Source: an uncultured Bacilli bacterium (GTDB lineage Bacteria; Bacillota_I; Bacilli_A; RF39; UBA660). Taken from it: DNA of 64,000 nucleotides. The position numbers and the translations under genes are program-made. This document shows positions 9,424-35,619 of the stretch, piece by piece (the stretch's first letter is position 1; every line of letters starts with the position of its first letter). Location of the stretch: assembly GCA_934085675.1 (NCBI GenBank), contig CAKOHH010000001.1, forward strand, positions 108,562-172,561. Direction: 5' to 3'. Below the pieces are notes generated by a model. The model made no database searches and was not told the origin of the DNA. It saw nothing but the letters and a program-made list of their open reading frames with translations.

Positions 9424-9937
9424 CCCCTTGAAAGGTAATGGTATTTTTCTTTTTGTTTAAAACAAAACGATATTCTGGCGTTGTTTTAGTTTTATCATGT
9501 TCAAAAAATATTTCTTCATCAGTTTCTTCTTCTAACAATCCATTTTTTAAATCATCAAAAGTTAAATATTTATTTTTTAAAGCTTCTTCTAAAGTCATTT
9601 TGGTCGAGCCGTAACTTAAATAGACTTCATCCACACAATCAAAATAAAAAGTCTTATCTTCAAAAACAAACTTTTCTTTCAGTTGACACCTTTTCTGAGG
9701 CTCATAAGATAACTCATAAGTTGTATAATCATCTATTTTTTCTAATCTTTCTTTTCGTTGTAATTTAAGTAAATAAGTATTTAAGAAAAAAGATAGAACC
9801 AAAAGGCATCCTAGAATAAAAAGTAAGAAGTAATAAACTGCTTTTTTTTGCTTTGCTAAATAATTTTTTCCCTTCATAATACCACCTTCCAACTTGCCTA
9901 TATATAATATCACATACCTGTCAAAAAGTCTTGTCAA
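9413..9937 (-). CDS. Hypothetical membrane-anchored protein
   Basis: 174 aa with a single N-terminal TM segment. Convergently overlaps the flippase gene by 11 nt. Confidence 0.4.
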   Translation of the reverse strand: MTRLFDRYVILYIGKLEGGIMKGKNYLAKQKKAVYYFLLFILGCLLVLSFFLNTYLLKLQRKERLEKIDDYTTYELSYEPQKRCQLKEKFVFEDKTFYFDCVDEVYLSYGSTKMTLEEALKNKYLTFDDLKNGLLEEETDEEIFFEHDKTKTTPEYRFVLNKKKNTITFQGAIE

Positions 9938-10032
9938 AAAAGAGTTAAAATTAATTTTTTTAAGGCAACAAATTGTAATTTAGAAAGGGGTATGATAAAA
10001 TTAAAAAGAATAATAAAGGAGCAAATGATTTT

Positions 10033-11301
10033 ATGTTTACAGAGTATGATTATCAAAATGAACCAATTGTTGATATCGTTAATGAAATGCTAGTGGATGC
10101 TGCCAAAAAAAGGGCCAGTGATATCCACATGGACCCAACCCCTGATGTTTTAAATATAAGAATTAGGGTTGATGGAGAACTTATTTTATACGCTAAAGTA
10201 CCCGCGGCGGTTAAGAAAAATTTAGTCACCCGGGTGAAAATTATTTCAGGCATGAATATTACTGAGTCAAGAGTACCTCAAGATGGAGCTATCAAAATGA
10301 CAGTAGATGGCAAAGATTTAGACTTTCGTGTTTCGACACTGCCAATTGTTTATGGAGAAAAAGTCGTTATTCGTCTTTTAGATTATTCAGCTACCCAAGC
10401 ATCATTAGATAGCCTAGGTTTTTCAGAAGAAAACTTAGGTAAATTAAAAGAAGCAATGAATAAACCAAATGGCATTATTTTAGTAACTGGAGCCACAGGT
10501 TCTGGTAAATCAACAACAGTATATTCTATTTTACAATCTTTAAATTGTGTTGAAAGAAATATTATCACCGTTGAAGACCCCGTCGAGATGAAAATAGCCG
10601 GCATTAACCAAGTCCAAACTATGAGTGAAATTGGTCTTACCTTTGCCAGTGCTCTTCGTTCTATTTTAAGACAAGACCCCGACATTATCATGATTGGTGA
10701 GATTCGTGATAATGAAACTGCCCGTATTGCCGTTCGTGCATCTATCACAGGACACCTTGTCCTATCTACTATCCATACTAATAACTCTTTAACAACTATC
10801 GAAAGACTTGTAGATATGGATGTTGAAAGATATTTACTAGGTTCTGCCTTAGAAGCCATTGTTTCTCAAAGACTTTGCAAAAAACTTTGTCCAAAATGTC
10901 GCCGACCAAGAAAAACGACTGACTATGAAAAAAGAGTTATGAAAGAAGCTTTAAAAATGGATATTGATAACATTTATGAACCGGTCGGATGTGATGAATG
11001 TTACAAAGGCTACAAAGGACGTATTGCTTTACAAGAAGTTTTAGTTTTAAATCAAGAAATAAGAGATGCGATTGTCAATAACGCGACTAAAGAAGAACTA
11101 AGGGTACTTATTTACAACAATGGCCATACTTTAAAGTTATTAGATGATGGTTTAATCAAGGTTATTAACGGTTTAACAAGTTTTGAAGAAGTTTTAAGAG
11201 TTATTGATATTAAAGATGACTTAGGTGAAGGTGAATCTGATTTAAAAGACGCTTTAATTGGTAAAAAATCTTCTAAAACAATAGAGGTTGATACTTTATA
11301 A
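10033..11301 (+). CDS. comGA: GspE/PilB-family secretion ATPase (ComGA-like competence/type IV pilus assembly ATPase)
   Basis: Walker A GATGSGKST, Asp box, Walker B, His box. Tetracysteine motif CKKLCPKC...CDEC. 422 aa. No other comG/pil genes are adjacent. Confidence 0.8.
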   Translation: MFTEYDYQNEPIVDIVNEMLVDAAKKRASDIHMDPTPDVLNIRIRVDGELILYAKVPAAVKKNLVTRVKIISGMNITESRVPQDGAIKMTVDGKDLDFRVSTLPIVYGEKVVIRLLDYSATQASLDSLGFSEENLGKLKEAMNKPNGIILVTGATGSGKSTTVYSILQSLNCVERNIITVEDPVEMKIAGINQVQTMSEIGLTFASALRSILRQDPDIIMIGEIRDNETARIAVRASITGHLVLSTIHTNNSLTTIERLVDMDVERYLLGSALEAIVSQRLCKKLCPKCRRPRKTTDYEKRVMKEALKMDIDNIYEPVGCDECYKGYKGRIALQEVLVLNQEIRDAIVNNATKEELRVLIYNNGHTLKLLDDGLIKVINGLTSFEEVLRVIDIKDDLGEGESDLKDALIGKKSSKTIEVDTL

Positions 11302-18099: not shown

Positions 18100-18960
18100 T
18101 TAAGACGGTTGCTTCAATTTTTCGATTTCTTTTTCAGTCAAGCCTGTCACTTTAGAAATATAATTGATATCGTTTGTTTCCTTTAATAAGTTTCTGGCAA
18201 CAATATCAATTCCTTTACTCATACCGATACTGATTCCTTGACTTTTACCAATATCAATTCCTTCTTCACGCCCATAATCACGAGCCTTTTTAAACATACT
18301 TCTTTCTTCATTCATTACTTCATCGCTTAAAAGGGCATTCATATACTCATCCATTGTCATAATTGTTCTCCATTTCTGTTTTAGTTTGTCTCGTTCTTCT
18401 TCACTATTTGCTTTTAAATATCTTAAAATATCTAAAAACTCTTCATCACTTATGCCTACATTATAATTAAGTTTATCTAGTAAATCAAGACGTATGTAAT
18501 AAATTTGAATATCATCTGTTAAAGGATAGCCTTGTTCTTCTAAGAAATATCTTTGCACTAATTTATCTTGTAAAACACCTTTTTTAACATGGTCTACTAA
18601 ATTAATTTGGATAAACTTCTTCATTTTATGATATGGCATGCTTTTTTTTAGTTGACTACTATAACCACGACAAAGATAAACATTTGACTTTCTTAAGTTT
18701 TCTTCATTGAATGTTTTATAAGCTTCTAAGTTTAAAATGACATTGTCTCCTAAAAAAGCAAAAACATCGGCCCTGATATTTTTTTCTTTATAAGTTGCTT
18801 TTTTAAATGGATATTCATGACTTTTAATCTCAATTTGTTTTTCTAAGAAACCTTTAGGTAATCTTAAAACATTTTCTGAGATAACTTCAAGTGGTCGGGT
18901 GTATTCTTCATTTCCTAAGATATTTTTCACCCAGTAGTCTTCCATTAAATCAATTTTCAT
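18100..18960 (-). CDS. Rpn/YhgA-like PD-(D/E)XK recombination-promoting nuclease / putative transposase (copy 1)
   Basis: 286 aa. D...E.K nuclease motif (IRADVFAFL...ILNLEAYK). C-terminal Gly-periodic helix region EEGIDIGKSQGISIGMSKGIDIVARNLL...GLTEKEIEKL, typical of the Rpn family. A near-identical copy lies at 21866-22735. Confidence 0.5.
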   Translation of the reverse strand: MKIDLMEDYWVKNILGNEEYTRPLEVISENVLRLPKGFLEKQIEIKSHEYPFKKATYKEKNIRADVFAFLGDNVILNLEAYKTFNEENLRKSNVYLCRGYSSQLKKSMPYHKMKKFIQINLVDHVKKGVLQDKLVQRYFLEEQGYPLTDDIQIYYIRLDLLDKLNYNVGISDEEFLDILRYLKANSEEERDKLKQKWRTIMTMDEYMNALLSDEVMNEERSMFKKARDYGREEGIDIGKSQGISIGMSKGIDIVARNLLKETNDINYISKVTGLTEKEIEKLKQPS

Positions 18961-19089: not shown

Positions 19090-20457
19090 CTAATTAACAA
19101 TATAAGGATCTGTCATAGTGCCGGTTCCTGTAATTGTAACGCCAGACTTTAAATTAATAACCGGACGGCATGCCAGATTTCCACCTGAATATGTATCGTC
19201 AATCGCATAAAAACCAGCATTTTGAGCAGAAAAAATTTTAACCTGTGGGCTTTGAAAATAAGCATCATAATAGCCAGATGGTGTCATTGTCCAAAACTCG
19301 TTTCCAGCAACTAAATAATCATTTATATTTTTTTTTGCATTATTATATTTACCATTTACAATTCCACCAGCATGACCAGCAAACATTACTTCATCAATTG
19401 TAATTAATCCAACCGGATATGTTAAAACTTTATTACCTAAAGAAGAGGAAGAAACAGTATAATAATCACTTGCATTCTCACATACAAGTGTTGGCTTACT
19501 TGCCTCAACTCTTACATATGCTTTATAATAAGTTATCGTTTGTCCTATTCCTGTGTTTGAATCATTTGATAATGAACTGCGATCACCACAAAACCCAACA
19601 TTGATATCTAATTTTGATGCGTAACTCGAAAGTTTATCCGTATAGAACTTATCTACATTTGTTTTAATTTTTGATGATGTTCCCGTACCATGAGTTTCTC
19701 CTTCAGTATACATATAGCCTACATACATATTGTTATTAGAACTTGGATTAAATTGACTGGTGCCATATTGTCTATCTGTTGATGATTCGCCATTAGCATG
19801 GGCACTTGTACCATCATAAATCATTCTAATAGAACCATTGCTGTTTATTCTTATGATTCTCCAATAGTAACCTGCAAACTTGACATAATTGTTTTCTACT
19901 GAACCTCGATAATAATAAGTAGGCTTGCCATCATTGTCTGTTGTTTCATAAATTCCTTTTTCGTGGGATTCACATGAAGAATCATCACAGGCTGACTTTG
20001 TAAAATCTGGAGTATAACTATTAACTTCAATGTTTCCTAAAGCCGTTTTTAGTGTTTTAGCTGTTTTATTAAAATATAAAGTACATTTGGTTCTAGTATT
20101 ATCTGTTGCACTATAATTATAATAATCACCAATGAATTTCCAACCAGCATTATCCCAAGTTGGAACAACGCCATTATTACAGTTTGATTTTGTTTCATCT
20201 AAAGTGTAACCTGTATTTTGAAGAGGCATATTTCTTGATATAACCCCATCTATATAATAAGCAAAATAAATGTCTCCTGGATCTTCTACTGTGCCATTTA
20301 TGACATCAAAAGCTTTCTTTTCTTCATATAAAGCATAGGATTTATAAAATAAATAACTGCTTATGGAAAGTAAAAGAAATCCTATGACTAATATGACATA
20401 AGATTTTCTTTTATAATTATTGTCTTTATATCTTTTTAATTCCATTATCTTCACCAT
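19090..20457 (-). CDS. Secreted variable surface/exoprotein, family A1, paralog 1
   Basis: Sec signal with KSYA-LYEEK cleavage site. Conserved core YYYRGSVENNYVKFAGYYWRIIRINSNGSIRMIYDG. C-terminal tail RPVINLKSGVTITGTGTMTDPYIVN. Paralogous to 7 other ORFs in the window. Confidence 0.7.
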   Translation of the reverse strand: MVKIMELKRYKDNNYKRKSYVILVIGFLLLSISSYLFYKSYALYEEKKAFDVINGTVEDPGDIYFAYYIDGVISRNMPLQNTGYTLDETKSNCNNGVVPTWDNAGWKFIGDYYNYSATDNTRTKCTLYFNKTAKTLKTALGNIEVNSYTPDFTKSACDDSSCESHEKGIYETTDNDGKPTYYYRGSVENNYVKFAGYYWRIIRINSNGSIRMIYDGTSAHANGESSTDRQYGTSQFNPSSNNNMYVGYMYTEGETHGTGTSSKIKTNVDKFYTDKLSSYASKLDINVGFCGDRSSLSNDSNTGIGQTITYYKAYVRVEASKPTLVCENASDYYTVSSSSLGNKVLTYPVGLITIDEVMFAGHAGGIVNGKYNNAKKNINDYLVAGNEFWTMTPSGYYDAYFQSPQVKIFSAQNAGFYAIDDTYSGGNLACRPVINLKSGVTITGTGTMTDPYIVN

Positions 20458-20505
20458 AGTTTCCTATGATGATTATAACAGATACCCCCCCCCCGACTGT
20501 CAATA
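20458..20505 (-). promoter_or_regulatory. Promoter with a G10 homopolymer in the -35/-10 spacer (candidate phase-variation switch)
   Basis: Minus strand reads TTGACAgtc-G10-tatcTGtTATAAT-catcatAGGAAActATG. The poly-C run on the + strand spans 20485-20494. Confidence 0.65.
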
Positions 20506-20544
20506 GGTTTTTATTTTATTTGGTTGCTATAATTGTTTTATTTC

Positions 20545-20909
20545 TTTTTTGGAAAGCACCGAAATCATAGCAATGTAATCTAAATCATCGGTTGTTTTTA
20601 ATAGTCGTTCGATAACTGCCTTTTTCTCTGCATCAATTCCTTCTTCACGGCCATAATCATGAGCCTTTTTAAGCTGACTACTATAACCACGACAAAGATA
20701 AACATTTGACTTTCTTAAATTTTCTTCATTGAATGTTTTATAAGCTTCTAAGTTTAAAATGATATCTTTTCTTAAAAAAGCAAAAACATCGGCCCTGATA
20801 TTCTTTTCTTTATAAGTTGCTTTTTTAAATGGATATTCATGACTTATAATCTCAATTTGTTTCCTAAGATATTTTTCACCCAGTAGTCTTCCATTAAATC
20901 AATTTTCAT
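20545..20909 (-). pseudogene. Rpn-like nuclease gene remnant (two internal deletions, altered 3' end)
   Basis: Start codon and the first ~20 codons are identical to the intact copies. About 360 bp and about 80 bp are missing. Both deletion junctions sit at short direct repeats (gcctttttaa / ttctaaga). Confidence 0.7.
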
Positions 20910-21250
20910 GATTTTTGTCTCCTTCCTAAGAAGATAAATAAATTACCTTCTACTTATATATTCAAAAAAAATCAGCAATTTCCTTTTTTTTAATGAAAAA
21001 AGATTGCAATTTCTTGCAATCTTGACACTTATTTGACATCAATTAACAATATAAGGATTTATTATAATGACTATTCCAATAAAACTAAAGTCTGAGTAAA
21101 TATTGACGCAGTCCTTAAAAACTATTTAAGCCATAACCATCATAAGTTCTTAAATCATATTTTAAAGTATAGGAAAAATTAAAGTCAAATCAACTTAACT
21201 TGATGAAGTCATTATTCAATAGGATATGCCTGCTAAATAAATACTATTTT

Positions 21251-21865: not shown

Positions 21866-22735
21866 CTATACTAACACAATTTTCTCTAATTCTTCTTTAG
21901 AAAGTCCTGTGGCAGCAGAAATCTTTTCTAAAGAAAAGTTCATTTTTAAAAGTTCTTTGGATATTAGGATACGTTCCTCTTTTTTGCCAACATCAATTCC
22001 TTTACTCATGCCGATACTGATTCCTTTATCAATTCCTTCTTCACGACCATAATCACGAGCCTTTTTAAACATACTTCTTTCTTCATTCATTACTTCATCG
22101 CTTAAAAGGGCATTCATATACTCATCCATTGTCATAATTGTTCTCCATTTCCATTTTAGTTTGTCTCGTTCTTCTTCACTATTTGCTTTTAAATATCTTA
22201 AAATATCTAAAAACTCTTCATCACTTATGCCTACATTATAATTAAGTTTATCTAGTAAATCAAGACGTATGTAATAAATTTGAATATCATCTGTTAAAGG
22301 ATAGCCTTGTTCTTCTAAGAAATATCTTTGCACTAATTTATCTTGTAAAACACCTTTTTTTACATGGTCTACTAAATTAATTTGGATAAACTTCTTCATC
22401 TTATGATATGGCATGCTCTTTTTTAGTTGACTACTATAGCCACGACAAAGATAAACATTTGATTTTCTTAAATTTTCTTCATTAAATGTTTTATAAGCTT
22501 CTAAGTTTAAAATGATATCTTTTCTTAAAAAAGCAAAAACATCGGCCCTGATATTCTTTTCTTTATAAGTTGCTTTTTTGAATGGATATTCATGACTTTT
22601 AATCTCAATTTGTTTTTCTAAGAAACCTTTAGGTAATCTTAAAACATTTTCTGAGATAACTTCAAGTGGTCGGGTGTATTCTTCATTTCCTAAGATATTT
22701 TTCACCCAGTAGTCTTCCATTAAATCAATTTTCAT
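21866..22735 (-). CDS. Rpn/YhgA-like PD-(D/E)XK recombination-promoting nuclease (copy 2)
   Basis: More than 90% identical to 18100-18960 over most of its length. The C-terminal Gly-repeat region is diverged. Confidence 0.5.
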   Translation of the reverse strand: MKIDLMEDYWVKNILGNEEYTRPLEVISENVLRLPKGFLEKQIEIKSHEYPFKKATYKEKNIRADVFAFLRKDIILNLEAYKTFNEENLRKSNVYLCRGYSSQLKKSMPYHKMKKFIQINLVDHVKKGVLQDKLVQRYFLEEQGYPLTDDIQIYYIRLDLLDKLNYNVGISDEEFLDILRYLKANSEEERDKLKWKWRTIMTMDEYMNALLSDEVMNEERSMFKKARDYGREEGIDKGISIGMSKGIDVGKKEERILISKELLKMNFSLEKISAATGLSKEELEKIVLV

Positions 22736-22864
22736 GATTTCTTTCTCCTTTCTAAGAAGATAAATAAATTACCTTCTACTTATATATTCAAAAAAAATCC
22801 TTGATTTCCTTTTTTTTAGTGAAAAAAAATTGCAATTTCTTGCAATCTTGACATTTATTTGACA

Positions 22865-24229
22865 CTAATTAACAATATAAGGATCTGTCATAGTGCCGGT
22901 TCCTGTAATTGTAACGCCAGACTTTAAATTAATAACCGGACGGAGACCATTGTTATAAACTGTAGCTCCATCGCCAAAAGCACCTAAACCACCGACGCCG
23001 ATTACACTAGTAAACCAGCTAGTTCCGCAGAACGGATAATAACCTCCTGCTGGTGTCATTGTCCAGTAAGAAATTCCCATTATCAAATAACTATCTGCAT
23101 TTTCCTTTTGATGACTATATTCACCATCAAAGACACCACCGGCATGACCTGCATACATAGCTTCATCAGCGGTTATTAAGCCAATCGGGTAGTTTAATTT
23201 TTTATTACCGCTTGCCGCACTAGAAACCGTATAATAATCTTTTATATTTTCACAGGTAAGTGTTGGTGTACTTTCTTCTACCCTTATGTATCCTTTATTA
23301 TAAGTAGTTACCGTGCCGGTTCCGACACCACTTTGCTGAGTTAGGCTAGAACGGTCTCCACAAAAACCTGCATTCGTATCTAATTTTGAAACGTAACTTG
23401 AAAGTTTATCTGTATAGAACTTGTCCACATTTATTTTAACGGCTGAAGCTGTACTCGTGCCATAGGCTTCTCCGGATGTGTACATATAGCCGACATACAT
23501 ATTGTTATCTGATGATGTATTAAATGGACTGGTACCGTATCGTCTATCTTCAGAAGCCTCTCCGTTTTTATGAGCTACTGTCCCATCATAAAGCATTCTA
23601 ATTGAACCATTGCTGTTTATTCTTATGATTCGCCAGTAAAAGCCTGCAAACTTAACATAATTATTTTCGACAGAACCACGATAGTAATAAGTTGGCTTTC
23701 CATCATTGTCTGTTGTTTCAAAAATGCCTTTTTCATGGGATTCACATAAAGAATCATCACAGGCTGACTTTGTAAAATCTGGAGTATAACTATTCACTTC
23801 AATATTTCCTAAAGCCGTTTTTACTGTTTTTGCTGTTTTATTAAAATATAAAGTACATTTAGTTCTTGTATTTGTGGTTGCACTATAATTTTTGTAATTC
23901 ATTTTGGCTTCCCAAGAAGCATTATTCCAAGTTGGAACAACACCATTATTACAATTTGATTTTGTTTCATCTAAAGTATAACCCGTATTTTGAGCTGGCA
24001 TATTTCTTGATATAACACCATCTATATAATAAGCAAAATAGATATCTCCTGGATCTTCTACTGTTCCATTTATGACATCAAAATCTTTCTTTTCTTCATA
24101 TAAAGCATAGGATTTATAAAATAAATAACTATTTACAGAAAGTAAAAGAAATCCTATGACTAATATGACATAAGATTTTCTTTTATAATTATTGTCCTTA
24201 TATTTTTTTAATTCCATTATCTTCACCAT
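22865..24229 (-). CDS. Secreted variable surface/exoprotein, family A1, paralog 2
   Basis: N-terminal ~330 aa nearly identical to paralog 1. The C-terminal third has diverged. The C-terminal tail is the same. Confidence 0.7.
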   Translation of the reverse strand: MVKIMELKKYKDNNYKRKSYVILVIGFLLLSVNSYLFYKSYALYEEKKDFDVINGTVEDPGDIYFAYYIDGVISRNMPAQNTGYTLDETKSNCNNGVVPTWNNASWEAKMNYKNYSATTNTRTKCTLYFNKTAKTVKTALGNIEVNSYTPDFTKSACDDSLCESHEKGIFETTDNDGKPTYYYRGSVENNYVKFAGFYWRIIRINSNGSIRMLYDGTVAHKNGEASEDRRYGTSPFNTSSDNNMYVGYMYTSGEAYGTSTASAVKINVDKFYTDKLSSYVSKLDTNAGFCGDRSSLTQQSGVGTGTVTTYNKGYIRVEESTPTLTCENIKDYYTVSSAASGNKKLNYPIGLITADEAMYAGHAGGVFDGEYSHQKENADSYLIMGISYWTMTPAGGYYPFCGTSWFTSVIGVGGLGAFGDGATVYNNGLRPVINLKSGVTITGTGTMTDPYIVN

Positions 24230-24280
24230 AGTTTCCTATGATAATTATAACAGATACCCCCCCCCCCGACTGTCAAGAGG
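24230..24280 (-). promoter_or_regulatory. Promoter with a G11 homopolymer in the spacer (candidate phase-variation switch)
   Basis: Same TTGACAgtc-Gn-tatctgTTATAAT architecture. The C run on the + strand spans 24257-24267, which is 11 nt. Confidence 0.65.
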
Positions 24281-24291
24281 CTTTTGGGAGT

Positions 24292-25641
24292 TTAATTCAC
24301 TATATATGGATCTGTTTTGGTTCCTGTTCCTGTGATTGTTACATCTGAGCAAATGTTAACAACAGGTTTTATACCTACAGTAGCAGTACATGTCCAGTCA
24401 TTTATTTGACCAACACCCCCATTAAGAAAGAGAGACGTAGACCAATACCCATCACCAATGATAAAAGTTCCAGAAACTGGAGTTATAGTCCAAAAATTTG
24501 TTCCTGATGTATAAATATTTAAACTTTTAGGTTGTATATTTAAAACACCTTCAAACATTCCTCCTCCAGAGCCTGATAGCATTAACTCATCTACCGTGAT
24601 TAAGCCAATATTATACTTTAAACTTCTATTTCCAATGTTTGCTGATGAAATTGTATAATAATCATCATTCATACATGACAAATCAGGATTACTTTGAACA
24701 ACACGCTTATATCCTTCAAAAATGGTGTCATTATTATTAATTCCAGCATTATTGTTATTCGATGTTAAGATAATTCTACGATCCCCACAGAAACCGACAT
24801 TTGTATCTAATTTTGATGCGTAACTCGAAAGTTTATCCGTATAGAACTTATCTACATTTGTTTTAATTTTTGATGATGTTCCCGTACCATGAGTTTCTCC
24901 TTCAGTATACATATAGCCTACATACATATTGTTATTAGAACTTGGATTAAATTGACTGGTGCCATATTGTCTATCTGTCGATGCCTCCCCATTAGCATGA
25001 GCACTTGTCCCATCATAAATCATTCTTATTGAGCCATTACTGTTTATCCTTATGATTCGCCAATAAAAGCCTGCAAACTTAACATAATTGTTTTCTACTG
25101 AGCCACGATAGTAATAGGTTGGATTGCCATCATAGTCTGTTGTTTCAAAAATGCCTTTTTCATGGGATTCACATAAAGAATCATCACAGGCTGACTTTGT
25201 AAAATCTGGAGTATAACTATTCACTTCAATATTTCCTAAAGCCGTTTTTACTGTTTTAGCTGTTTTATTAAAATACAAAGTGCATTTGGTTCTAGTATTT
25301 GTGGTCGCACTATAATTATGATAATCACCAATAAATTTCCAACCAGCATTATCCCAAGTTGGAACAACGCCATTATTACAGTTTGATTTTGTCTCATCTA
25401 AAGTATAACCTGTATTTTGAAGAGGCATATTTCTTGATATAACGCCATCTATATAATAAGCAAAATAAATATCCCCTGGATCTTCTACGGTTCCATTTAT
25501 GACATCAAAATCTTTCTTTTCTTCATACAAGGCATAACTCGGGGATAAAACTAGATATCCTGCTACTACCCCTAATAAAAAAAATAAGAAAAAAATTAGT
25601 ATCTTCTTATAATTTATTTGTTTAAACTTTTTCAAAGACAT
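24292..25641 (-). CDS. Secreted variable surface/exoprotein, family A1, paralog 3
   Basis: Different signal peptide (MSLKKFKQINYKKILIFFLFFLLGVVAG). Same core as paralogs 1/2. Divergent C-terminal third. Tail KPVVNICSDVTITGTGTKTDPYIVN. Confidence 0.7.
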   Translation of the reverse strand: MSLKKFKQINYKKILIFFLFFLLGVVAGYLVLSPSYALYEEKKDFDVINGTVEDPGDIYFAYYIDGVISRNMPLQNTGYTLDETKSNCNNGVVPTWDNAGWKFIGDYHNYSATTNTRTKCTLYFNKTAKTVKTALGNIEVNSYTPDFTKSACDDSLCESHEKGIFETTDYDGNPTYYYRGSVENNYVKFAGFYWRIIRINSNGSIRMIYDGTSAHANGEASTDRQYGTSQFNPSSNNNMYVGYMYTEGETHGTGTSSKIKTNVDKFYTDKLSSYASKLDTNVGFCGDRRIILTSNNNNAGINNNDTIFEGYKRVVQSNPDLSCMNDDYYTISSANIGNRSLKYNIGLITVDELMLSGSGGGMFEGVLNIQPKSLNIYTSGTNFWTITPVSGTFIIGDGYWSTSLFLNGGVGQINDWTCTATVGIKPVVNICSDVTITGTGTKTDPYIVN

Positions 25642-25710
25642 AAAAAAATCACCACAGTTTCCCTATGATGATTATAACAGATACCCCCCCCCCGACTGTC
25701 AAGAGTATCT
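25642..25710 (-). promoter_or_regulatory. Promoter with a G10 homopolymer in the spacer (candidate phase-variation switch)
   Basis: TTGACAgtc-G10-tatctgTTATAAT. The C run on the + strand spans 25684-25693. Confidence 0.65.
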
Positions 25711-25727
25711 TTTAAAGCATTAAATTT

Positions 25728-26288
25728 TTACGCTCTACTTGAATATTTACCATCGCTAGTTGAGATAATAATTCTTTCGCCTTGGCTAATGAATAATGGC
25801 ACTTTAACAGTATAGCCTGTTTCAATTTTAGCATCTTTCATAGCATTGTTAGTTGTATTACCTTTAACAGCTGGTTCTGTTTCAACAACTTCGAATTCGA
25901 TTTTTTCAGGTAAAGTAACACCTAATAATTCGCCTTCATAATAATCAAGTTTGATTTCGATTCCTTCTTTTAAGAAACGTTTTTCATTTTCTAATTTACT
26001 TCCTGGAACTTCTACTTGATCATAAGTTTCTGTGTTCATGAACACATAGTTATCTCCATTAGCATATAAAAATTGCATTGGATTATGTTCCACACGAGCT
26101 CTTTCAATTTTAATATTAGTATTGTAAGAGTTTTCAACAACAGCACCTGTTCTTAAGTTCTTAGTTTTCATACGAACAAAAGCACTGCCTTTTCCAGGTT
26201 TAACATGTTGGAATTCAATAATTTGACAAAGATTACCGTCTAAAATAATTGTCATTCCATTTTTAATATCGTTGATATTAATATTCAT
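25728..26288 (-). CDS. efp: Elongation factor P
   Basis: 186 aa; KPGKG loop motif (HVKPGKGSAFVRMK). Confidence 0.9.
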   Translation of the reverse strand: MNININDIKNGMTIILDGNLCQIIEFQHVKPGKGSAFVRMKTKNLRTGAVVENSYNTNIKIERARVEHNPMQFLYANGDNYVFMNTETYDQVEVPGSKLENEKRFLKEGIEIKLDYYEGELLGVTLPEKIEFEVVETEPAVKGNTTNNAMKDAKIETGYTVKVPLFISQGERIIISTSDGKYSSRA

Positions 26289-26303
26289 AATCTTCTCTCC
26301 TTA

Positions 26304-26477
26304 CTATTTTCCAAGTTTAGTTTCTTTAAATACTGTTACTTGATGACAAGTAGGACAATATTTTTTCATTTCCATTTTATCTGGAGTATTTTTTTTGTTC
26401 TTAATTGTTGGACGAATTTGTTTTCCACAACGAGAACATTTTAATCCAAAAAATTGTCTATTTTCATTTTTTGCCAT
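26304..26477 (-). CDS. rpmG: 50S ribosomal protein L33
   Basis: 57 aa: MAKNENRQFFGLKCSRCGKQIRPTIKNKKNTPDKMEMKKYCPTCHQVTVFKETKLGK. Has the CxxC...CxxC zinc ribbon. GGAGG RBS. Too short for the ORF track. Confidence 0.75.
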   Translation of the reverse strand: MAKNENRQFFGLKCSRCGKQIRPTIKNKKNTPDKMEMKKYCPTCHQVTVFKETKLGK

Positions 26478-26589
26478 TATTTTTTACCTCCTCACATCAA
26501 AACTATATGTATTTTAGCATAGTTAGAACCTAAGTTCAAGCGAAAATAGTTTATCTAAAACTTAGGTTAAACTAATTTTTTATTTCTTT

Positions 26590-29500
26590 TTAAAAAACAC
26601 CATCAAATAAACTTAATTGACTTGTCTCAGGCATTGAGCCAAAGATGCCCATAGAGCGCATTTTTTCAACTGTTGTTTGATTTACTTTACCACGACTGGC
26701 AAAATCTTCAATACTATAGAAGGCTTTTTCTTGTCTTTCTTTAATAATTTGGGTAGCAACAGAGTCTCCAAGACCATCTAAACTTCTAAATGGCATAATA
26801 AGGCCATTTTCTTTCTCGTCCATTACAAAGTTTGCACCATCACTTTTTTCAATATCTATAGTTTCAAATTTGATACCCCGGGCAGTTGCTTCAAGTGCTA
26901 ATTTTAAGGTTTCAAGTAAAGATGATTCTTTGTTTGTCGCATCATAACCTTTCGCTTGAATTTCGACCATTTTAGCTTTTATCGCGTCATATCCTTTACA
27001 CATAACATCGATATCAAAATCTTGAAAACGGGTTGAAAAATAACTGCAATAATAAACAAGTGGTTTATGAACTTTATACCAGGCAATACGAAAAGCACTC
27101 GTAACATAAGCGGCGGCATGAGCCTTTGGGAACATGTATTTTATCTTTTGACAAGAAGCAATAAACCAATCCGGAATATTTGCTTTTTTCATTGTTTCAA
27201 CATAACCTGCCCATGTTTCAGGGTCTTTACTGGCCTTTCCTTTACGAACAAACTCCATAATTTTAAAGGCCGTATATGGTTCTAGACCACCATACATAAG
27301 CTCAACCATGATGTCATCACGACAGCCAATAACTTTGGCAAATGGTACAATATTTTTTTGAATAAGCTCTTGGGCATTACCTAACCATACATCAGTACCA
27401 TGAGCAAGACCAGATATTTTAATAAGCTCGGCAAAAGTGGTTGGTTTTGTATCTTTAACAAGTTGGATGGTAAATGGCGTACCAAACTCCGGAACGCCTA
27501 AGGTACCCGTATCACACATAATTTGTTCTTTGGTAACACCTAGGGCTTTTGTACTAGTAAAAATACTCATGGTTTCTTTATCATCTAAAGGCACTTCGGT
27601 AATATTATCACCCGTTAAATCCTGAATCATTCGCAGTTGAGTTGGGTCGGTATGACCTAAAATATCGAGTTTTAAAACGTCTTGGTCGATAGCATGGTAT
27701 TCAAAATGGGTTGTTCGCCAAGCACTCGTTGGGTCATCAGCGGGATACTGGAAAGGTGAAAAATCATAAACATCCATGTATCCTGGAATAACAACGATTC
27801 CTCCTGGGTGTTGACCAGTTGTTCTTTTACATCCTGTGCAACCGATAGCTAAACGTTCAATCTCAATGTTACGCATAATAATATTTTTATTTTCACAGTA
27901 ACCTTTGACATAACCAAAGGCTGTTTTTTCGGCAACGGTACCAATCGTTCCAGCCCGGTAAACATTATCGACACCAAATAGTACCTTGGTATATTCATGA
28001 GCACTGGCTTGGTTTAAATCAGAGAAATTTAAGTCAATATCTGGTACTTTATCGGCGTTAAAACCAAGGAAAGTTTGGAATGGTATATCATGACCATCTT
28101 TGTGCATTCTGGTCCCACACTTAGGACATTTTTTATCCGGAAGGTCAAAACCGTCTTTACAACTATTACCTAAAGGTTCTCCATTATCATCATTAAACTG
28201 GCTATATTGGCATTTAGGACAACGATAATGAGGAGCCAAACTATTTACCTCAGTAATTCCCATAAGGTTGGCAACAAAAGATGATCCTACTGAACCACGT
28301 GATCCTACTAAAAAGCCTTCATCATTGGAGTGTTTAACAAGCTTTTGGGCAATTAAATAAATAACGTCAAAGTTAGCACCAATAATTGCGGTCATTTTGT
28401 CTTTGGCTTTTTTTAAAGCTTCTTCTTTACTAAGTTCTGGTTCTTCTTTTAACACGGCTAAAGAGATTTCTTCTTGGACACTTTCTGGTCCTTTTAAAAT
28501 TACATCATGAAGTCTTTTATATATTTCTGCTTCATCACTAGAAGCATTTTTCTTAACCGCATCAATTAAAGGAGCGCCGTATAACTCTAAGGCGATACGT
28601 TCCTCAATATGATAAGGTAAAGGTTCGCCGTACCATTCTTTGGCTTTATTATAAACCATTTCGGTAACAATCATTTGAGAGTTTTCAATCTTGGGAGCAA
28701 AAGGAATACCACCTGTATCAATAATAACTTCGATTTCTTCAACCATCTCGGCTATTTTATTAGTATTTGTAACAACAATTTCATAAGCTAAATCTTCGCC
28801 TAAGAATTTGAAATCATCTAGCATTTCTGCGGTTGTTTTCAAATACATATTAGGCACATTAATACCTCTTCTATTTAATGGGTGTAACTTACCATTGAAT
28901 TTTTGGTTAACAATAATTTCCCGATAGATTTTATCATCTTTCGTTAAGTTATGAACATCACCTGTTGCAACTACAGGTTTACCTGCTTCTTTCGCAACTC
29001 GCACAATTCTTTTAAGATATTCTTCAGCTTCATAGACACTTTGAAATTTTCTTTCAGGGCCAATTAAGTGTTCAAAGGCACTAATAGGTTGAACCTCGAT
29101 ATAATCATAGAAACTCATCATGTTAACGAGTTCTTCGTCTTCTTTACTGCCGGCTTTATCAAAAATTTCACCATTAATACAACCTGAACCAATTAATAAA
29201 CCCTCTCTTAATTTAGAAATATCCCGTCTAGGAATCTTAGGCTGTTCATTTTTGTATAAATATTTGGTGTTAGCCATAGAGATAATTTTAAAGAGATTTT
29301 TAAGTCCCACCTTATTTTTAGCAATCACGCAGGCATGAAAAGGATAACTAAATCTGACTAAGGCATCCATATCCACTTCTTCTAATAAGTGATCGGTTGT
29401 TTCAATATTACGATCATTTAACACTTTACACATTTTATAGAAGCATATAGCGGTTCCTTCGGCATCATAATCGGCACGGTGGTGTTTTTCTTCATCCCAA

Positions 29501-31134
29501 GGTACATCAAGTCTTTTGGTTAAGGTTTGTAATTTATGGTTTGGCCAATCAGGATGAAGCATACGAGCTAGGCTCATGGTATCTAAAACGGTCGCATCAA
29601 ATTCTTTTAAACCATATTTATTGCAAGCGGCTTTCATGAAAGAAATATCGAACTTGGCATTATGCGCAACCATTGGAAGGTCCCCTGTCCACTCTAAAAA
29701 TCTTTTTGTGACATTTTCTTCATTATCTTTACCATGAAGCATTTCATCGGTGATAAATGTTAATTCGGTAATCTTTTTAGGTATTGGACGATGGGGGTCT
29801 ATAAGTTCATCAAAACGATCAAGAATCTTGCCATTTTGGATTTTAACGGCGCCAATTTCAATCATTTGGTCAGAACCGGCATAAAAACCTGTCGTCTCGG
29901 TATCGAAAACAACATAGGTATCATCAAGTAAAGAAAAGGTTCTGGGATTAAAAATAAAGTCAACATCGTCATTGACGATATTCATCTCGGCTCCATAAAG
30001 AACTTTAAAACGGTCTTTACCTTCTTTTCCTTTATTATAAGCCTCAACACTATGGAATAAATCAGGGAAAGATTGAACACAGTTATGATCGGTTATAGCA
30101 ACTGCTTTTTGTCCCATCTTTGAAACATAGGAAACAATCTTTGTCGCATCAATAACACCATCCATGGCACTCATCATCGTATGCATGTGAAGTTCTACTC
30201 TTGGTATTTCAGCCTCATCTTTAACAACTTCATCTTGGCTATCAATTTTTTCCATATTACGAACACCTAAAACAAAGTCACGAGCAAAGTTATCATATTC
30301 GACATTTCCTTGAAATCGAAACCACTTACCTACTTTTAAAGTACTCATTACTGCTTGATATTCTTTTTTATCCTTTTTAAAGATTTTTGCCAGTAAAGAG
30401 TTTGTTTTATCACTTATTTTTAAAGTAATAATATTAATATTTTCTCTTTCTAAAGTATCAATGCCAAACACATAGGCTTCTAAAATAACCCCTTTTTGTT
30501 CGCCCATAATATTATTAATAGCTGTTTTTTCCCCATTAATTTCTTTACCAACTATAATATTTCCTTCAATTTTTGGCTTTTCTTCAACTACTTTTGTTTC
30601 CATTTTTTCTTTTTCAATTTCTTCTTGAATACTTTTTTTAAGTTCTTCATTTAAAGATACCGAAAAAGTAATATCCGTGATACCAAAACGTTCTAAGTCT
30701 TCTTCCATATAATAAAACTCTCTTTTTAAATCTTCTTCTTCTGCTTTATTACTTACTTCAAAAGACACATGATTTTCTTTAACTATAGGAGCAGTACTTA
30801 AAACACCACTTAAAGATGGTTTTTTCATTTTATATATTTTTAAAATATTTTCTAAATAATCTTGTAAAGTTTCATCTTTGCTATGATTAAATTTTAAAGT
30901 TATCGTGCAATTTTCTTTACCATGAATTTTATTTTGACAGGCTAAAAGAAGCGAAGAAGCTACTTCATAAGGAAGTAAATTTTCACTTACCATGACCACA
31001 TTAAATAATTTTTTAGCCTTATTTAAATAAACTTTTTCAATTTCAATTTGTTTTAATTCTTCATATTCTTTATCATAAGAAATACTATCTAAAAATCTTT
31101 TTACATCTTCTTGCATAAACACACTTCCTCTCAA
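26590..31134 (-). CDS. polC: DNA polymerase III PolC-type (Gram-positive replicative polymerase with embedded 3'-5' exonuclease)
   Basis: About 1500 aa, PHP domain. Exonuclease motifs (VVFDTETTG ... H..YDAE). Polymerase core and C-terminal HhH region. Confidence 0.95.
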   Translation of the reverse strand: MRGSVFMQEDVKRFLDSISYDKEYEELKQIEIEKVYLNKAKKLFNVVMVSENLLPYEVASSLLLACQNKIHGKENCTITLKFNHSKDETLQDYLENILKIYKMKKPSLSGVLSTAPIVKENHVSFEVSNKAEEEDLKREFYYMEEDLERFGITDITFSVSLNEELKKSIQEEIEKEKMETKVVEEKPKIEGNIIVGKEINGEKTAINNIMGEQKGVILEAYVFGIDTLERENINIITLKISDKTNSLLAKIFKKDKKEYQAVMSTLKVGKWFRFQGNVEYDNFARDFVLGVRNMEKIDSQDEVVKDEAEIPRVELHMHTMMSAMDGVIDATKIVSYVSKMGQKAVAITDHNCVQSFPDLFHSVEAYNKGKEGKDRFKVLYGAEMNIVNDDVDFIFNPRTFSLLDDTYVVFDTETTGFYAGSDQMIEIGAVKIQNGKILDRFDELIDPHRPIPKKITELTFITDEMLHGKDNEENVTKRFLEWTGDLPMVAHNAKFDISFMKAACNKYGLKEFDATVLDTMSLARMLHPDWPNHKLQTLTKRLDVPWDEEKHHRADYDAEGTAICFYKMCKVLNDRNIETTDHLLEEVDMDALVRFSYPFHACVIAKNKVGLKNLFKIISMANTKYLYKNEQPKIPRRDISKLREGLLIGSGCINGEIFDKAGSKEDEELVNMMSFYDYIEVQPISAFEHLIGPERKFQSVYEAEEYLKRIVRVAKEAGKPVVATGDVHNLTKDDKIYREIIVNQKFNGKLHPLNRRGINVPNMYLKTTAEMLDDFKFLGEDLAYEIVVTNTNKIAEMVEEIEVIIDTGGIPFAPKIENSQMIVTEMVYNKAKEWYGEPLPYHIEERIALELYGAPLIDAVKKNASSDEAEIYKRLHDVILKGPESVQEEISLAVLKEEPELSKEEALKKAKDKMTAIIGANFDVIYLIAQKLVKHSNDEGFLVGSRGSVGSSFVANLMGITEVNSLAPHYRCPKCQYSQFNDDNGEPLGNSCKDGFDLPDKKCPKCGTRMHKDGHDIPFQTFLGFNADKVPDIDLNFSDLNQASAHEYTKVLFGVDNVYRAGTIGTVAEKTAFGYVKGYCENKNIIMRNIEIERLAIGCTGCKRTTGQHPGGIVVIPGYMDVYDFSPFQYPADDPTSAWRTTHFEYHAIDQDVLKLDILGHTDPTQLRMIQDLTGDNITEVPLDDKETMSIFTSTKALGVTKEQIMCDTGTLGVPEFGTPFTIQLVKDTKPTTFAELIKISGLAHGTDVWLGNAQELIQKNIVPFAKVIGCRDDIMVELMYGGLEPYTAFKIMEFVRKGKASKDPETWAGYVETMKKANIPDWFIASCQKIKYMFPKAHAAAYVTSAFRIAWYKVHKPLVYYCSYFSTRFQDFDIDVMCKGYDAIKAKMVEIQAKGYDATNKESSLLETLKLALEATARGIKFETIDIEKSDGANFVMDEKENGLIMPFRSLDGLGDSVATQIIKERQEKAFYSIEDFASRGKVNQTTVEKMRSMGIFGSMPETSQLSLFDGVF

Positions 31135-31186
31135 GTTTATAACACTTATTTTTTCTTTTGTCTACTAAAGTAGGCACAATTTGACA

Positions 31187-34126
31187 CTACGACTGCTTTT
31201 TTATACTGTTGATATTAATTTGATAATTAGAAAGACGTCTAGCAACACGACCTTGTATAAAGACAAGATTGCCTTCTTTTAAATCGTCTAACTCTTTCAT
31301 AAGGCTTGGAAAACAAACAAAACTTAAAGAACCAGTTTCATCACTAGCTGTAATAAAAGCCATATCTTCGTTTTTCTTCGTTTTTATTTTTCTTATTTTT
31401 TCTAATAAAACGACACAGCTAACTTGTTTATCATAAAGGCTTTTAACATTTGCAAGTTTACATATATTAGAACCTATAAAAGCACTAGACGGATGATTGC
31501 CTAAATAAAAGCCAAAACTTTCATATTCATCCTGTCTTTTCTCTTCAGGAGTTTCTTCTAATATTACTTTTATTTCAGGTTTTAAAATGAAATCTTCTTC
31601 TAAATCACACGCTAAAGTGGCATAACTTAAAGCATTGTCAATATTGTTTAAAAGAGTTTTATGGTTTAAACCAAACGCATCAAAAACGCCAGCTTTAGTT
31701 AATACTTCCAAAGTTTTTTTATTAAAACCATTTTTAATATTTCTTTTGGTAAAATCATAAAAGTCTTGATATGGTTTGTCTAGACGATTAGAGACGATCG
31801 TTTCACTGGCGACTATTCCTAAGTTGCGAATGATATTAAAAGGTGTCCTTAAAGATGTCCCTTCTATTTGATAACTTGAAGTACTCTTATTAATATCAGG
31901 AGGCAAAACTTTTATTTTATAACGCTTTGCTAAGGCCAAATATTCTTGGGTTTTAATAGTACTATCTAAAGACATGTTTAAAATACTGGTAATAAAGTAA
32001 AGCGGATAATAATATTTTAAATAAGCCATTAAATAGCCCATATAGGCATAAGCAACCGAATGGGATTTATTAAAACCATAGTTAGCAAATTTGCTAATTA
32101 ACTCGTAAACTTCGCTAGCTAAAGTCTTGTCGTAGCCTTTTTGAATAGCTCCTTCGATAAATTTTTCCTGAAACATTTCTATTTTGTCTTTTTTCTTTTT
32201 ACTCATGGCTCTTCTTATAGTATCTGCTTCCGCATAAGTAAAGCCTCCCATCAAACTTAAGATTTGCATAATTTGTTCTTGATAAACAATAATGCCATAA
32301 GTTTCTTTTAAAATGGGCTCTAAATCAGGATGAGGGTAAGTAACTATTTCTTTTTTTTCTTTTCTTTTAATAAATTTAGGAATATTATCCATTGGTCCTG
32401 GTCGATATAAGGCAATGGCATTAATCATATCTTGAAAAGAAGTTGGTTTTAATTGCCTTAAAAAGTTTTTCATTCCTTCACTATCAAACTGAAAAACACC
32501 TAAAGTATCCCCTTCTCTAAAGCATTTTAAAACGTTATCATCCGAAAGATTGATGTTTCGTAAATTGATTTTTTGTTTTGTTTTCTCATAAATTAAATTA
32601 GTGACATTTTTGATGATATCTAAATTCGTAATGACGAGAAAATCCATTTTAAGTAAACCTAAATCTTCTAAGTAATTCATAGTAAAACCTGTTAAGCGTT
32701 CGTTATTTAAGTATCTTACAGGAATCACGTTATCAAGGGGTTCTGAAGAAATAACAACCCCAGCAGCATGAACAGAGATATGTTTTTTTAAGCCTTCTAA
32801 GGCTAAAGCATATTTGGCAAGTTCTTTTAAGCTAGGATTAGCCAAAATCTTTTGCCTAAGTTCTTGATTTTCCAGATTTTCTTTAAGAGTCATTCTCGCA
32901 TCAAGTAACCTTGTAAATGAATCAACTAAAGAAGGATTAATATTTAAGGCTTTACCAACACACCGAATTACCAACCGACTTTTTAAAGTACCAAAGGTAA
33001 TAATATGCGATACATTATCTATGCCATAGCGATTTTTAACATATGTTATAACGTCTTCTCTTCTTTTTTCTTCAAAGTCAATATCAATATCTGGCATGGT
33101 AACCCGGTCAGGATTTAAAAATCTTTCAAAAAGTAAATGATATGGCATAGGATCAATATCCGTAATTCCTAAAGAGTAACTCACTAAAGAACCAACGGCA
33201 CTACCACGGCCAACTCCAACCATAATATCATTTTTTTTAGCAAATAAAACGTAATCATAAACAATTAAAAAATAATCATCAAAACCCATTTTAGAAATGA
33301 CAGACAATTCATAAATAAGTCTATCTTGATATTCTTTAGTGACATTACCCTTAAGTCTTTTAAAAAGACCTTTTTGGGCTAGTTTCTTTAAATATTCACC
33401 TGAATTTTCTTCGGGTAAATATTTAGGAATGTAACGTTTATTATTGGGAAAAATAATATCAATACTTTCAATAAATTCCTTTGTTTTATCATTAAATTTT
33501 TCTTTAATATAATATTCAATGGTATTTTTTTCATAATTTTCAAGTTCAATATCTTCCAAAGAACTATTCTTGGAAATAGCTTCTAAAATTTGTAAAAGTT
33601 TGTTTTCTTTTATAAAGAAAGCTTTAAAATCAGGACAAAAAATAACTTGTTCTGTTTTTATAAGAGCATTATTTTCTTGATTAAATGTTGTATAGCCAAC
33701 ATATAAATGAGAAATATTTTCTTTTAAAAGGTCATAACTATCTAAATATGTAAAAGGTAAAATGATGTTGCATAAAGAAGAATGTTTATAAATATCCTCA
33801 AGGGTTAACTCACCCTTTTCATATAAGGTATTAATTTTTAAAAGGTCTTGATATCCTTCGTAATTTCTAGGGTATATATATAGTCTTATTTCATCAATGA
33901 TTACATCAAGACCAATTAAAGGTTTGATATTTTCTTTTTGTAGGGCCTTATAAAACTCCATAACTCCCGATAGGTTCGTATCACAAATACCACAAGTTTT
34001 TATTTGATATTTTGTTAAAAAAGTCAGTAATTTAGAAATCGTTATTGTACTTTTTAATAACGTATAATCAGTTGTAACCTTGAGAGGTATCATAACACTC
34101 ACCTTCTTTCTTTTGTAGTATATCAT
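31187..34126 (-). CDS. dnaE: DNA polymerase III alpha subunit DnaE
   Basis: 979 aa; PHP and polymerase-core motifs (GVGRGSAVGSLVSY). Confidence 0.9.
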   Translation of the reverse strand: MIYYKRKKVSVMIPLKVTTDYTLLKSTITISKLLTFLTKYQIKTCGICDTNLSGVMEFYKALQKENIKPLIGLDVIIDEIRLYIYPRNYEGYQDLLKINTLYEKGELTLEDIYKHSSLCNIILPFTYLDSYDLLKENISHLYVGYTTFNQENNALIKTEQVIFCPDFKAFFIKENKLLQILEAISKNSSLEDIELENYEKNTIEYYIKEKFNDKTKEFIESIDIIFPNNKRYIPKYLPEENSGEYLKKLAQKGLFKRLKGNVTKEYQDRLIYELSVISKMGFDDYFLIVYDYVLFAKKNDIMVGVGRGSAVGSLVSYSLGITDIDPMPYHLLFERFLNPDRVTMPDIDIDFEEKRREDVITYVKNRYGIDNVSHIITFGTLKSRLVIRCVGKALNINPSLVDSFTRLLDARMTLKENLENQELRQKILANPSLKELAKYALALEGLKKHISVHAAGVVISSEPLDNVIPVRYLNNERLTGFTMNYLEDLGLLKMDFLVITNLDIIKNVTNLIYEKTKQKINLRNINLSDDNVLKCFREGDTLGVFQFDSEGMKNFLRQLKPTSFQDMINAIALYRPGPMDNIPKFIKRKEKKEIVTYPHPDLEPILKETYGIIVYQEQIMQILSLMGGFTYAEADTIRRAMSKKKKDKIEMFQEKFIEGAIQKGYDKTLASEVYELISKFANYGFNKSHSVAYAYMGYLMAYLKYYYPLYFITSILNMSLDSTIKTQEYLALAKRYKIKVLPPDINKSTSSYQIEGTSLRTPFNIIRNLGIVASETIVSNRLDKPYQDFYDFTKRNIKNGFNKKTLEVLTKAGVFDAFGLNHKTLLNNIDNALSYATLACDLEEDFILKPEIKVILEETPEEKRQDEYESFGFYLGNHPSSAFIGSNICKLANVKSLYDKQVSCVVLLEKIRKIKTKKNEDMAFITASDETGSLSFVCFPSLMKELDDLKEGNLVFIQGRVARRLSNYQININSIKKQS

Positions 34127-34171
34127 GGATATTTATGTGTGTAAATAAGGCTATAAAAGAAAAAATTCAAC

Positions 34172-34813
34172 CTATTTTTTAGATTGAATCAAAGTAACGG
34201 CTACTAAAACAATAACAACGCCAATTAGGCCAATGATAATATAATTAACACTTTGAGGATTATTAACAGCATCATTTACGACCGCACCTGTTAAAAAATA
34301 ATCAGAACAATGTTCTATTTCAAAAGTTACCTTGCCATTTTTAACTTCCACATTTTTTGTTATATATTCAATAGTGTCATTATCTGGATTGTAATAATAA
34401 AGATAAAGTTCATCACCATTTTTAAATTCATTTTGAACATCCAAAGTAACCATAGTCTTTAAAGGAAGCGTACCATGATAATCAAAAGAAACAATTAATT
34501 TTTTTTGACTCACTTTATCCTCAATCCTTGAAGCTCCTGTTGTCGTTTCATTTAAAGATAATCTTAAATCTTCATCAATGTATAAACTGTCTTCCACCGA
34601 TATTTTTTTAGCTTTATCTTTTATAAATTGCCAACTATACTCTAAACCTCTTTCATAGTCTTTAATTTCATAAGTATAATAATCATTTGATTCTGTCTTT
34701 GTTATCGAAATATTTTTTTCTAAGGCTTTTACCTCTTTAAACGAAAAAAGAGAAATAGATATCACAAATATTTCTAAAAGACAAAACAGAATTTTTCTTC
34801 CCCTTTTTTTCAT
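34172..34813 (-). CDS. Hypothetical membrane protein (TM segments at both ends)
   Basis: Hydrophobic N- and C-terminal segments; no recognisable domain. Confidence 0.35.
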   Translation of the reverse strand: MKKRGRKILFCLLEIFVISISLFSFKEVKALEKNISITKTESNDYYTYEIKDYERGLEYSWQFIKDKAKKISVEDSLYIDEDLRLSLNETTTGASRIEDKVSQKKLIVSFDYHGTLPLKTMVTLDVQNEFKNGDELYLYYYNPDNDTIEYITKNVEVKNGKVTFEIEHCSDYFLTGAVVNDAVNNPQSVNYIIIGLIGVVIVLVAVTLIQSKK

Positions 34814-34831
34814 GTATCTATCCTCTTTCTT

Positions 34832-35533: not shown

Positions 35534-35588
35534 TTTTTATTAAATTTTAAAATAATTACTATATATTTTGACAATATTTGACAAAAAA

Positions 35589-35619
35589 GAAATGAACTTT
35601 TCAAAAGTTCATTTCTAAG
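35589..35619 (-). terminator. Rho-independent terminator (14-bp perfect inverted repeat) for the rplU-prp-rpmA operon
   Basis: AGAAATGAACTTTT-c-AAAAGTTCATTTCT. On the minus strand it is followed by a T run. Confidence 0.7.

Follow-up and report, generated by a model that had tools for sequence, protein, structure and literature searches.

Poly-G tracts in the promoter spacers of a large extracytoplasmic protein family: a candidate slippage-driven phase-variation system in uncultured gut Bacilli

Uninterrupted poly-G tracts lie between the -35 and -10 hexamers upstream of three paralogous genes in the window (the whole 64-kb stretch of DNA analysed here), and tracts of the same kind differ in length between strains that are otherwise nearly identical. 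[quoted passage not shown] The modules appear to be a well-supported candidate phase-variation system of a known class, in a protein family and an uncultured gut lineage that are both new.

As read from its sequence, the window derives from the chromosome of a low-GC, spore-forming bacterium of the Bacillota; the neighbouring genes and elements are efp, rpmG, polC, dnaE, lepA, spoIIP and an L21 leader. The closest public DNA was found in human-gut MAGs labelled 'uncultured Bacilli bacterium', from the Hadza and other cohorts, and for one homologue the source gives the name 'Candidatus Ventrenecus sp.'. The features of the locus, with coordinates in the window, are as follows.

18100..18960, minus strand: PD-(D/E)XK / Rpn-like gene, directly downstream of gene A
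19090..20457, minus strand: gene A, 455 aa from the first ATG
20443..20455, minus strand: probable RBS GGTGA (20455-20451) and probable true start ATG (20445-20443)
Downstream of the module 1 -10, minus strand: catcat, AGGAAA (20465-20460), ct and ATG (20457-20455)
20464..20465, minus strand: predicted transcription start, 7-8 nt after TATAAT, from standard sigma-A geometry
20472..20480, minus strand: TGtTATAAT, that is, the -10 hexamer TATAAT (20477-20472) with the upstream TG
Between tract 1 and the -10, minus strand: tatc (20484-20481), TG (20480-20479) and t (20478)
20485..20494, minus strand: G10 tract 1 in the promoter spacer (direct sequence reading)
20497-20495, minus strand: gtc between the -35 and the tract, module 1 (direct sequence reading)
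20498..20503, minus strand: -35 hexamer TTGACA, module 1 (direct sequence reading)
20530-20909: truncated Rpn-like copy
21866-22735: second Rpn-like copy
22865..24229, minus strand: gene B, 454 aa, paralogue with 76% identity to A
24244..24276, minus strand: module 2, with TTGACA (24276-24271), G11 (24267-24257), TATAAT (24249-24244) and a 21-bp spacer
24292..25641, minus strand: gene C, 449 aa, paralogue with 71% identity to A
25647..25673, minus strand: hairpin and U7 overlapping the module 3 RBS, terminator-like for transcripts from efp
25671..25702, minus strand: module 3, with TTGACA (25702-25697), G10 (25693-25684) and TATAAT (25676-25671)

An earlier note on this DNA had read module 1 as a G10 run within a 20-bp spacer between the -35 and the -10, and the minus-strand sequence matches that reading exactly (3+10+7 = 20 bp). 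The note had also held that such a tract is improbable by chance. This was borne out in the window, where GC is 30.4% over 64 kb and where four overlapping matches to G10 were observed, compared with none in 100 dinucleotide-preserving shuffles. Only three G/C runs of at least 6 are present, at 20485-20494 (10), 24257-24267 (11) and 25684-25693 (10), and there is no run of length 6-9 anywhere in the 64 kb. The note described a single tract; that tract is there, but the description was incomplete, because the same module also precedes two further paralogues. All three runs lie inside one module type, TTGACA-GTC-Gn-TATCTGT-TATAAT, located 5' of the paralogous genes that encode proteins of ~450 aa. 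Alignment of the three modules sets in abruptly, a few bases 5' of the -35, and extends into the coding region. A standard promoter scan, which accepts spacers of 16-18 bp, reported none of them, as expected for spacers of 20-21 bp.

Copies of the module were collected from one scan of a genome collection and from public gut metagenome contigs encoding identical proteins, which gave 87 complete copies in at least 29 sequence contexts, at least 3 MAG species and many samples. The tract was an uninterrupted G9-G12 in 84 of these (G9 in 9 copies, G10 in 60, G11 in 14 and G12 in 1), and the remaining copies had either an interrupted tract (GGCGGGGGG, two copies) or a decayed one (GGGGGGTGGGTGGGG, one copy). 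TTGACA stood 3 nt upstream of every G/C run of at least 9 seen in the examined loci, TATAAT was retained in 86 of the 87 copies, and GTC followed TTGACA in 70 of the first 72 copies tallied. The fixed parts of the spacer, 3 and 7 bp, were constant across copies, so tract length alone sets the spacer length, which ranged from 19 to 22 bp among the 84 uninterrupted copies, with its mode at G10. The TG upstream of the -10 is part of the window-type TATCTGT and is not conserved in the TATCCGT, TATCCAT and TATCAGT variants. Therefore, the extended -10 described earlier, although present in module 1, is not a conserved requirement. The decayed tract, in L175 (10587-10660), is the single natural example of decay, and there the module is followed by unrelated sequence and not by a family gene. 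We conclude that tract purity is apparently maintained where a gene follows. A separate scan of viral contigs gave no match to the module, and a loosened pattern, TTGACA-N6-30-TATCTGTTATAAT, returned at least 120 unrelated promoters from the metagenome collection, with no G-tract locus among the matches listed. L157-L161 carry a tandem array of at least seven paralogues, each with its own poly-G module (tracts at ~1163, 2589, 4009, 5114, 6532 and 7952).

Tract length was compared between close strains. As the consensus of Illumina assemblies, in which some contigs have 2-5x coverage and an error of 1 is possible, the lengths at loci with identical proteins and identical flanks were 10, 11, 10, 10 and 11 at the P0035 locus; 10, 10, 10, 9 and 9 at the P0067 locus; 9, 10 and 10, together with two interrupted tracts, at the P0056 locus; and 11, 11, 11, 10, 12 and 10 at the P0091 locus, which is the orthologue of window tract 2 (L181-L186). 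At the efp-adjacent module, the orthologue of tract 3, the 11 loci with G10 come from 10 contigs, since L171 and L196 sample a single contig; L176 has G11, and the tract of L175 is decayed. When contigs were aligned in pairs over 7-13 kb, with 0-51 SNPs per pair, all indels fell in poly-G tracts, except one in the retroelement variable region described below. For example, L142 and L144 differed by one tract change and no SNPs, and L159 and L161 by two tract changes and one SNP; no length variation was seen in the A/T runs of 8 that these contigs contain. The earlier note had proposed a comparison of isolates, and in such a comparison tract length turned out not to be invariant between near-identical contigs. 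L172 was 99.867% identical to the window over 22766-36288 (~13.5 kb), with 17 mismatches and a single gap, and that gap was G10 in L172 against G11 in the window at tract 2. Since lengths differ between near-identical strains while the flanks are unchanged, we conclude that the tracts are evidently hypermutable and change length far faster than the surrounding DNA. No orthologue of tract 1 was present in the public contigs retrieved, and the contigs anchored on the 109-aa neighbour break in the Rpn-like repeat before tract 1; the sister tracts and those in similar contexts, with lengths of 9 to 12, suggest that tract 1 is itself variable.

A variable tract with constant flanks and perfect hexamers is the signature expected of slipped-strand mutation, and the position of the tract between the -35 and the -10 suggests that it controls transcription. 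In the proposed mechanism, each ~450-aa paralogue would have its own sigma-A-type promoter (three in the window, and up to at least seven in tandem in related genomes), with uninterrupted poly-G accounting for roughly half of the -35/-10 spacer. Replication slippage would add or remove single G's at high frequency and so move the spacer in 1-bp steps over the 19-22 bp observed. Each step would shift and rotate the -35 relative to the -10 and change promoter strength independently for each gene, so that a clonal population would contain cells with different expressed subsets of a variable extracytoplasmic family. Transcription would start ~7 nt after TATAAT. Shorter tracts would be the more active, in the order G9 > G10 > G11, and the modal G10 would be a low or OFF state, which would suit a multigene family in which most copies are silent.

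Compared with the class of promoter-spacer homopolymers, the tract has the expected position and is polymorphic between strains (at sister tracts and other loci), whereas a length that gives a 16-18 bp spacer was not found. The earlier note had predicted an ON state at G7-8, that is, a spacer of 17-18 bp after the loss of 2-3 G. Neither length was seen in any of the 87 complete copies, in which lengths are 9-12; among the 84 uninterrupted copies there was no natural spacer of 16-18 bp and no tract shorter than 9. Canonical spacing does occur elsewhere in the genome, with TTGACA-17-TAGAAT in the rplU leader and TTGTCA-18-TATACT at a distant, tract-free paralogue. The absence of natural 16-18 bp spacers lowers our confidence in a simple optimum of the porA type, but not in a length-dependent switch. 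Either nearly all copies would be weak or OFF, or the promoter would work with an unusual geometry, and a multigene family that is mostly silent at G10 is plausible. Partial independence from -35 spacing could also come from the TG of the extended -10 where modules are of the window type. Alternative -35 elements that would place the spacer at 17-18 bp with G9-G11 were considered and rejected, since ACAGTC, GACAGT and TGACAG match TTGACA at 0-1 positions only. We think it unlikely that the functional lengths are the observed G9-G11, with 19-21 bp spacers made workable by poly(dG).poly(dC) geometry or by some factor; on that reading, arrays of at least six genes would typically have one short tract, and the switch would act together with retroelement mutagenesis and cassette turnover in a three-layer surface variation.

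A related explanation, which seems to us distinctly improbable, is a slippage switch that depends on an activator. It would have functional lengths of G9-G11, and a factor at or over TTGACAGTC, or poly(dG).poly(dC) structure, would permit spacers of 19-21 bp. It would be comparable to the Bordetella fim promoters, where a C-stretch determines how the BvgA site is phased with the -10. The tight clustering of lengths at 9-12 with none at 7-8, and the GTC kept after TTGACA in 70 of 72 copies, fit a factor of this kind. The modules have no linked regulator gene, however, and the spacer GTC-G10-TATCTGT has no dyad symmetry, and there is no adjacent MerR gene that would indicate a long-spacer promoter of the MerR type. 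The interrupted allele GGCGGGGGG also favours this explanation, as it is 9 nt long, presumably length-locked, and located 5' of an intact gene in two samples (L152, 4965-4973, and L155, 88-96); orthologues of this tract are G9 or G10. Further support came from five complete six-tract arrays, in each of which a single tract is G9 and the others are G10. The G9 tract belongs to gene 2, 4 or 5, according to sample, and thus to three different genes in all, but the pattern does not reach significance (p ~0.05, and 0.26 once related strains are collapsed). A rule of one G9 per array was rejected on these values (p = 0.05 to 0.26) and is suggestive only. In addition, mutational bias alone can give a modal length, as has been argued for G9 in C. 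jejuni (PMC3401435), and the poly-G spacer of porA still follows the 17-bp optimum (PMC7864442).

The number of cassettes in the efp-spoIIP interval varies between genomes. L187 has one cassette, as does the contig sampled as both L171 and L196; L172 and L181 have at least two family genes, and the window has three family genes, two Rpn-like genes, one truncated Rpn-like gene and one GNAT gene; in L195 the interval holds an IS110 transposase. This variable copy number is consistent with recombination between promoter modules. Genes A and B are each followed at 129 bp by an Rpn-like 'recombination-promoting nuclease' gene, and positions 21041-21058 of the window hold 18 nt left over from the 3' end of a family gene. 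Many public contigs end at the module or inside an Rpn-like gene, and it is in the latter that public assemblies of the species usually break. One could therefore suppose that the module is primarily a homology block or hotspot for recombination, perhaps aided by the Rpn-like proteins, and that the tract has little effect on expression, with the promoter firing through TATAAT, TG and A-rich upstream DNA. The range of 1 to 3 family genes in the interval would fit this supposition, as would the efp-proximal module of L171 that is joined directly to an A-like gene, the PD-(D/E)XK / Rpn-like genes after A and B with the truncated copy between them, and the many contigs that break at the module. 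Yet arrays of at least six modules occur without an Rpn-like gene, and recombination has no need of a pure homopolymer, although 84 of 87 tracts are pure. TTGACA is kept even though TG is absent in many variants, and the tract lies exactly between the hexamers in every copy. We regard this explanation as very unlikely. One precedent nevertheless counsels caution about the switch itself: a T-tract next to the vpma promoter of M. agalactiae has no role in switching (PMC2268961).

Least probable is a G-rich element of fixed length with another conserved role, at which the length differences would be errors of sequencing or assembly. Illumina accuracy does drop in long G/C homopolymers, coverage is low (2-9x) in several contigs, and the differences are mostly plus or minus 1. 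Against this, the range is the same across assemblers and cohorts (SPAdes NODE, MEGAHIT k141, scaffolds), contigs at 30-40x among them, and independent samples share the same alternative state (L159 and L160; L157 and L161). Nor does a fixed-length element explain the interrupted and decayed alleles. A slippage switch in which the tract itself would set promoter strength is the reading that we prefer.

The leader of gene A was read differently from the earlier note, which had taken AGGAAA as the RBS and placed the start at 20457. AGGAAA is an unlikely RBS, being 2 nt from the ATG at 20457 and placed where the transcript is predicted to begin. Gene A is probably translated from GGTGA and the second ATG, at 20445, because (A/G)TGGTGA followed by ATG after 5-7 nt is conserved in 19 of 19 leader variants, M5 is near-invariant in the family alignment, and the gene C module has an out-of-frame GTG where the first 'ATG' would be. 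The start ATG of gene C (25641) follows GGTGA after 7 T. A hairpin, UCAUCAUAG/CUAUGGUGA, is present at 20451-20471, 24226-24243 and 25647-25673 of the window (-11.8 kcal/mol, z = -5.4), and it buries GGTGA only when transcription begins 5' of the start predicted for the module itself. The possibility that this hairpin is a conserved insulator was rejected, since its strength in window-type modules is not shared by some variants, in which it is weak, and no compensatory changes were seen.

The N-termini of proteins A, B and C consist of a basic stretch and a hydrophobic helix of ~20 residues, followed by a conserved S-Y-A motif, and the remainder is Cys-rich; the product of gene A is predicted to be extracytoplasmic, with an N-terminal signal or anchor helix and a Cys-rich domain. 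The family can reasonably be taken as extracytoplasmic because of the N-terminal hydrophobic helix and the domain partners of its relatives. More than 6,979 close homologues were found, and at 50% identity the family comprises 5,569 clusters. Its C-terminal ~300 residues are present once or up to 12 times in giant proteins, and remote relatives combine them with Listeria-Bacteroides repeats, GH3, a camelysin-type N-terminus or DUF6273. Searches of Pfam and NCBIfam assigned no family to proteins A, B and C, and DUF6273 (PF19789) matched none of the three; a distant paralogue in the window scored 19.6 against PF19789, below the gathering score of 23.5, and the remote relatives P0124 and P0162 pass that score. 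A profile search of PDB sequences with the family gave nothing significant, and an AlphaFold2 model of protein A, built from a 49-sequence alignment, was of low quality (mean pLDDT 37.7). Exact look-ups of genes A and C in public records gave no match.

Three longer paralogues, of 610-671 aa, are encoded at 56618-62614 of the window, and they have only the C-terminal ~300 residues in common with A, B and C (36% identity). Their promoter is an ordinary TTGTCA-18-TATACT, and one of them has the sub-threshold DUF6273 match. A second type of locus was seen in L131-L140 (for example, L131 4580-11350), where 3-5 paralogues, 12 bp apart, lie downstream of a divergent HTH gene and differ in copy number among samples. 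No G/C run of at least 7 was found in this second locus type, and the poly-G switch therefore belongs to a subset of the family only.

One relative of the window family carries a diversity-generating retroelement (DGR). In L146, the variable region of the gene lies at 8687-8787 and the template at 8972-9072, with bAvd and reverse transcriptase downstream at 9268-10747. The 101-nt template repeat differs from the C-terminal region of the gene only at template adenines, and L146 and L147 differ only inside the variable region. Judged by these repeats, the L146 paralogue is a genuine, active DGR target. The C-terminus of gene B is similar to this retroelement-targeted region. In the window itself, a tblastn search found no reverse transcriptase or Avd, and there was no template-like repeat.

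Phase variation in gut commensals is mostly brought about by invertible promoters, and slippage-driven promoter switches are known mainly from pathogens of the genera Neisseria, Mycoplasma, Treponema and Haemophilus. The uncultured, AT-rich, spore-forming gut Bacilli described here, from the Hadza and other human cohorts, appear to run many independent poly-G promoter switches. These would act on a very large extracytoplasmic family that has no Pfam model and that is diversified by a retroelement in one relative. If the switch is confirmed, it would mark the proteins as strongly selected interface molecules, that is, as phage, host or immune targets, and the tracts, counted at the level of reads, would be a simple marker of how populations are structured within a host. 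The tracts also account for the breaks that assemblies of these genomes show at these loci.

The literature searched contained no prior account of the family or of such a switch for it, the latter in agreement with the earlier note. In the C-stretch of the B. pertussis fim2 and fim3 promoters, a homopolymer lies between an upstream recognition element and the -10 and makes the spacing unusually long, and the promoter works with BvgA. The fim2 and fim3 genes need BvgA, whereas no activator is evident for the window modules. In the vlp genes of M. hyorhinis, the ON length gives a near-canonical spacer, whereas the spacers observed here are 19-22 bp. The vlp system is nevertheless the closest analogue, since it consists of paralogous surface-protein genes, often in tandem, each with its own highly conserved promoter containing a spacer homopolymer, and single-nucleotide indels in that homopolymer turn each gene ON or OFF independently (PMC2268961, which cites Citti and Wise 1995). 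The two systems differ in that vlp has poly(A), encodes lipoproteins and has experimentally proven switching, whereas the window modules have poly(G), precede a Cys-rich, signal-anchored family and are candidate switches with length polymorphism between strains. Spacer homopolymers also switch maa2 in M. arthritidis and vmm in M. mycoides (PMC2268961).

In N. meningitidis, porA has a poly-G tract between the -10 and the -35, and its expression level tracks the length of the tract (as summarised in PMC7864442). Both porA and opc are single genes for proteobacterial outer-membrane proteins, porA with a canonical 17-bp optimum and opc with a poly-C over the -35, whereas the modules described here form a multigene array. 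In T. pallidum, the tract of tp0126 lies between the -35 and the -10 and varies from 7 to 11 G within isolates, with G8 or fewer being permissive (PMC7864442). The tprE/G/J/L genes and tp0126, an OmpW homologue, resemble the window module in that a paralogous surface family has poly-G promoters, but in the tpr genes the tract lies by the start site or the -10 and not in the spacer. Furthermore, the T. pallidum genome is GC-rich, so that G runs are less exceptional there, and a CRP-like factor takes part. C. jejuni has many poly-G tracts in an AT-rich genome, with a narrow mode at G9 that is attributed to mutational bias, in which G8 gains and G11 loses (PMC3401435); its tracts are mostly intragenic frameshift switches, whereas those of the window lie in promoter spacers. 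Finally, a slippage-driven G-tract acts as an ON/OFF switch in the pilus gene clusters of Bifidobacterium breve, as reported in PMC9187656. B. breve is an Actinobacterium, and its tract is not reported to lie in a promoter spacer, but there, as here, the tract concerns a surface structure of a gut commensal.
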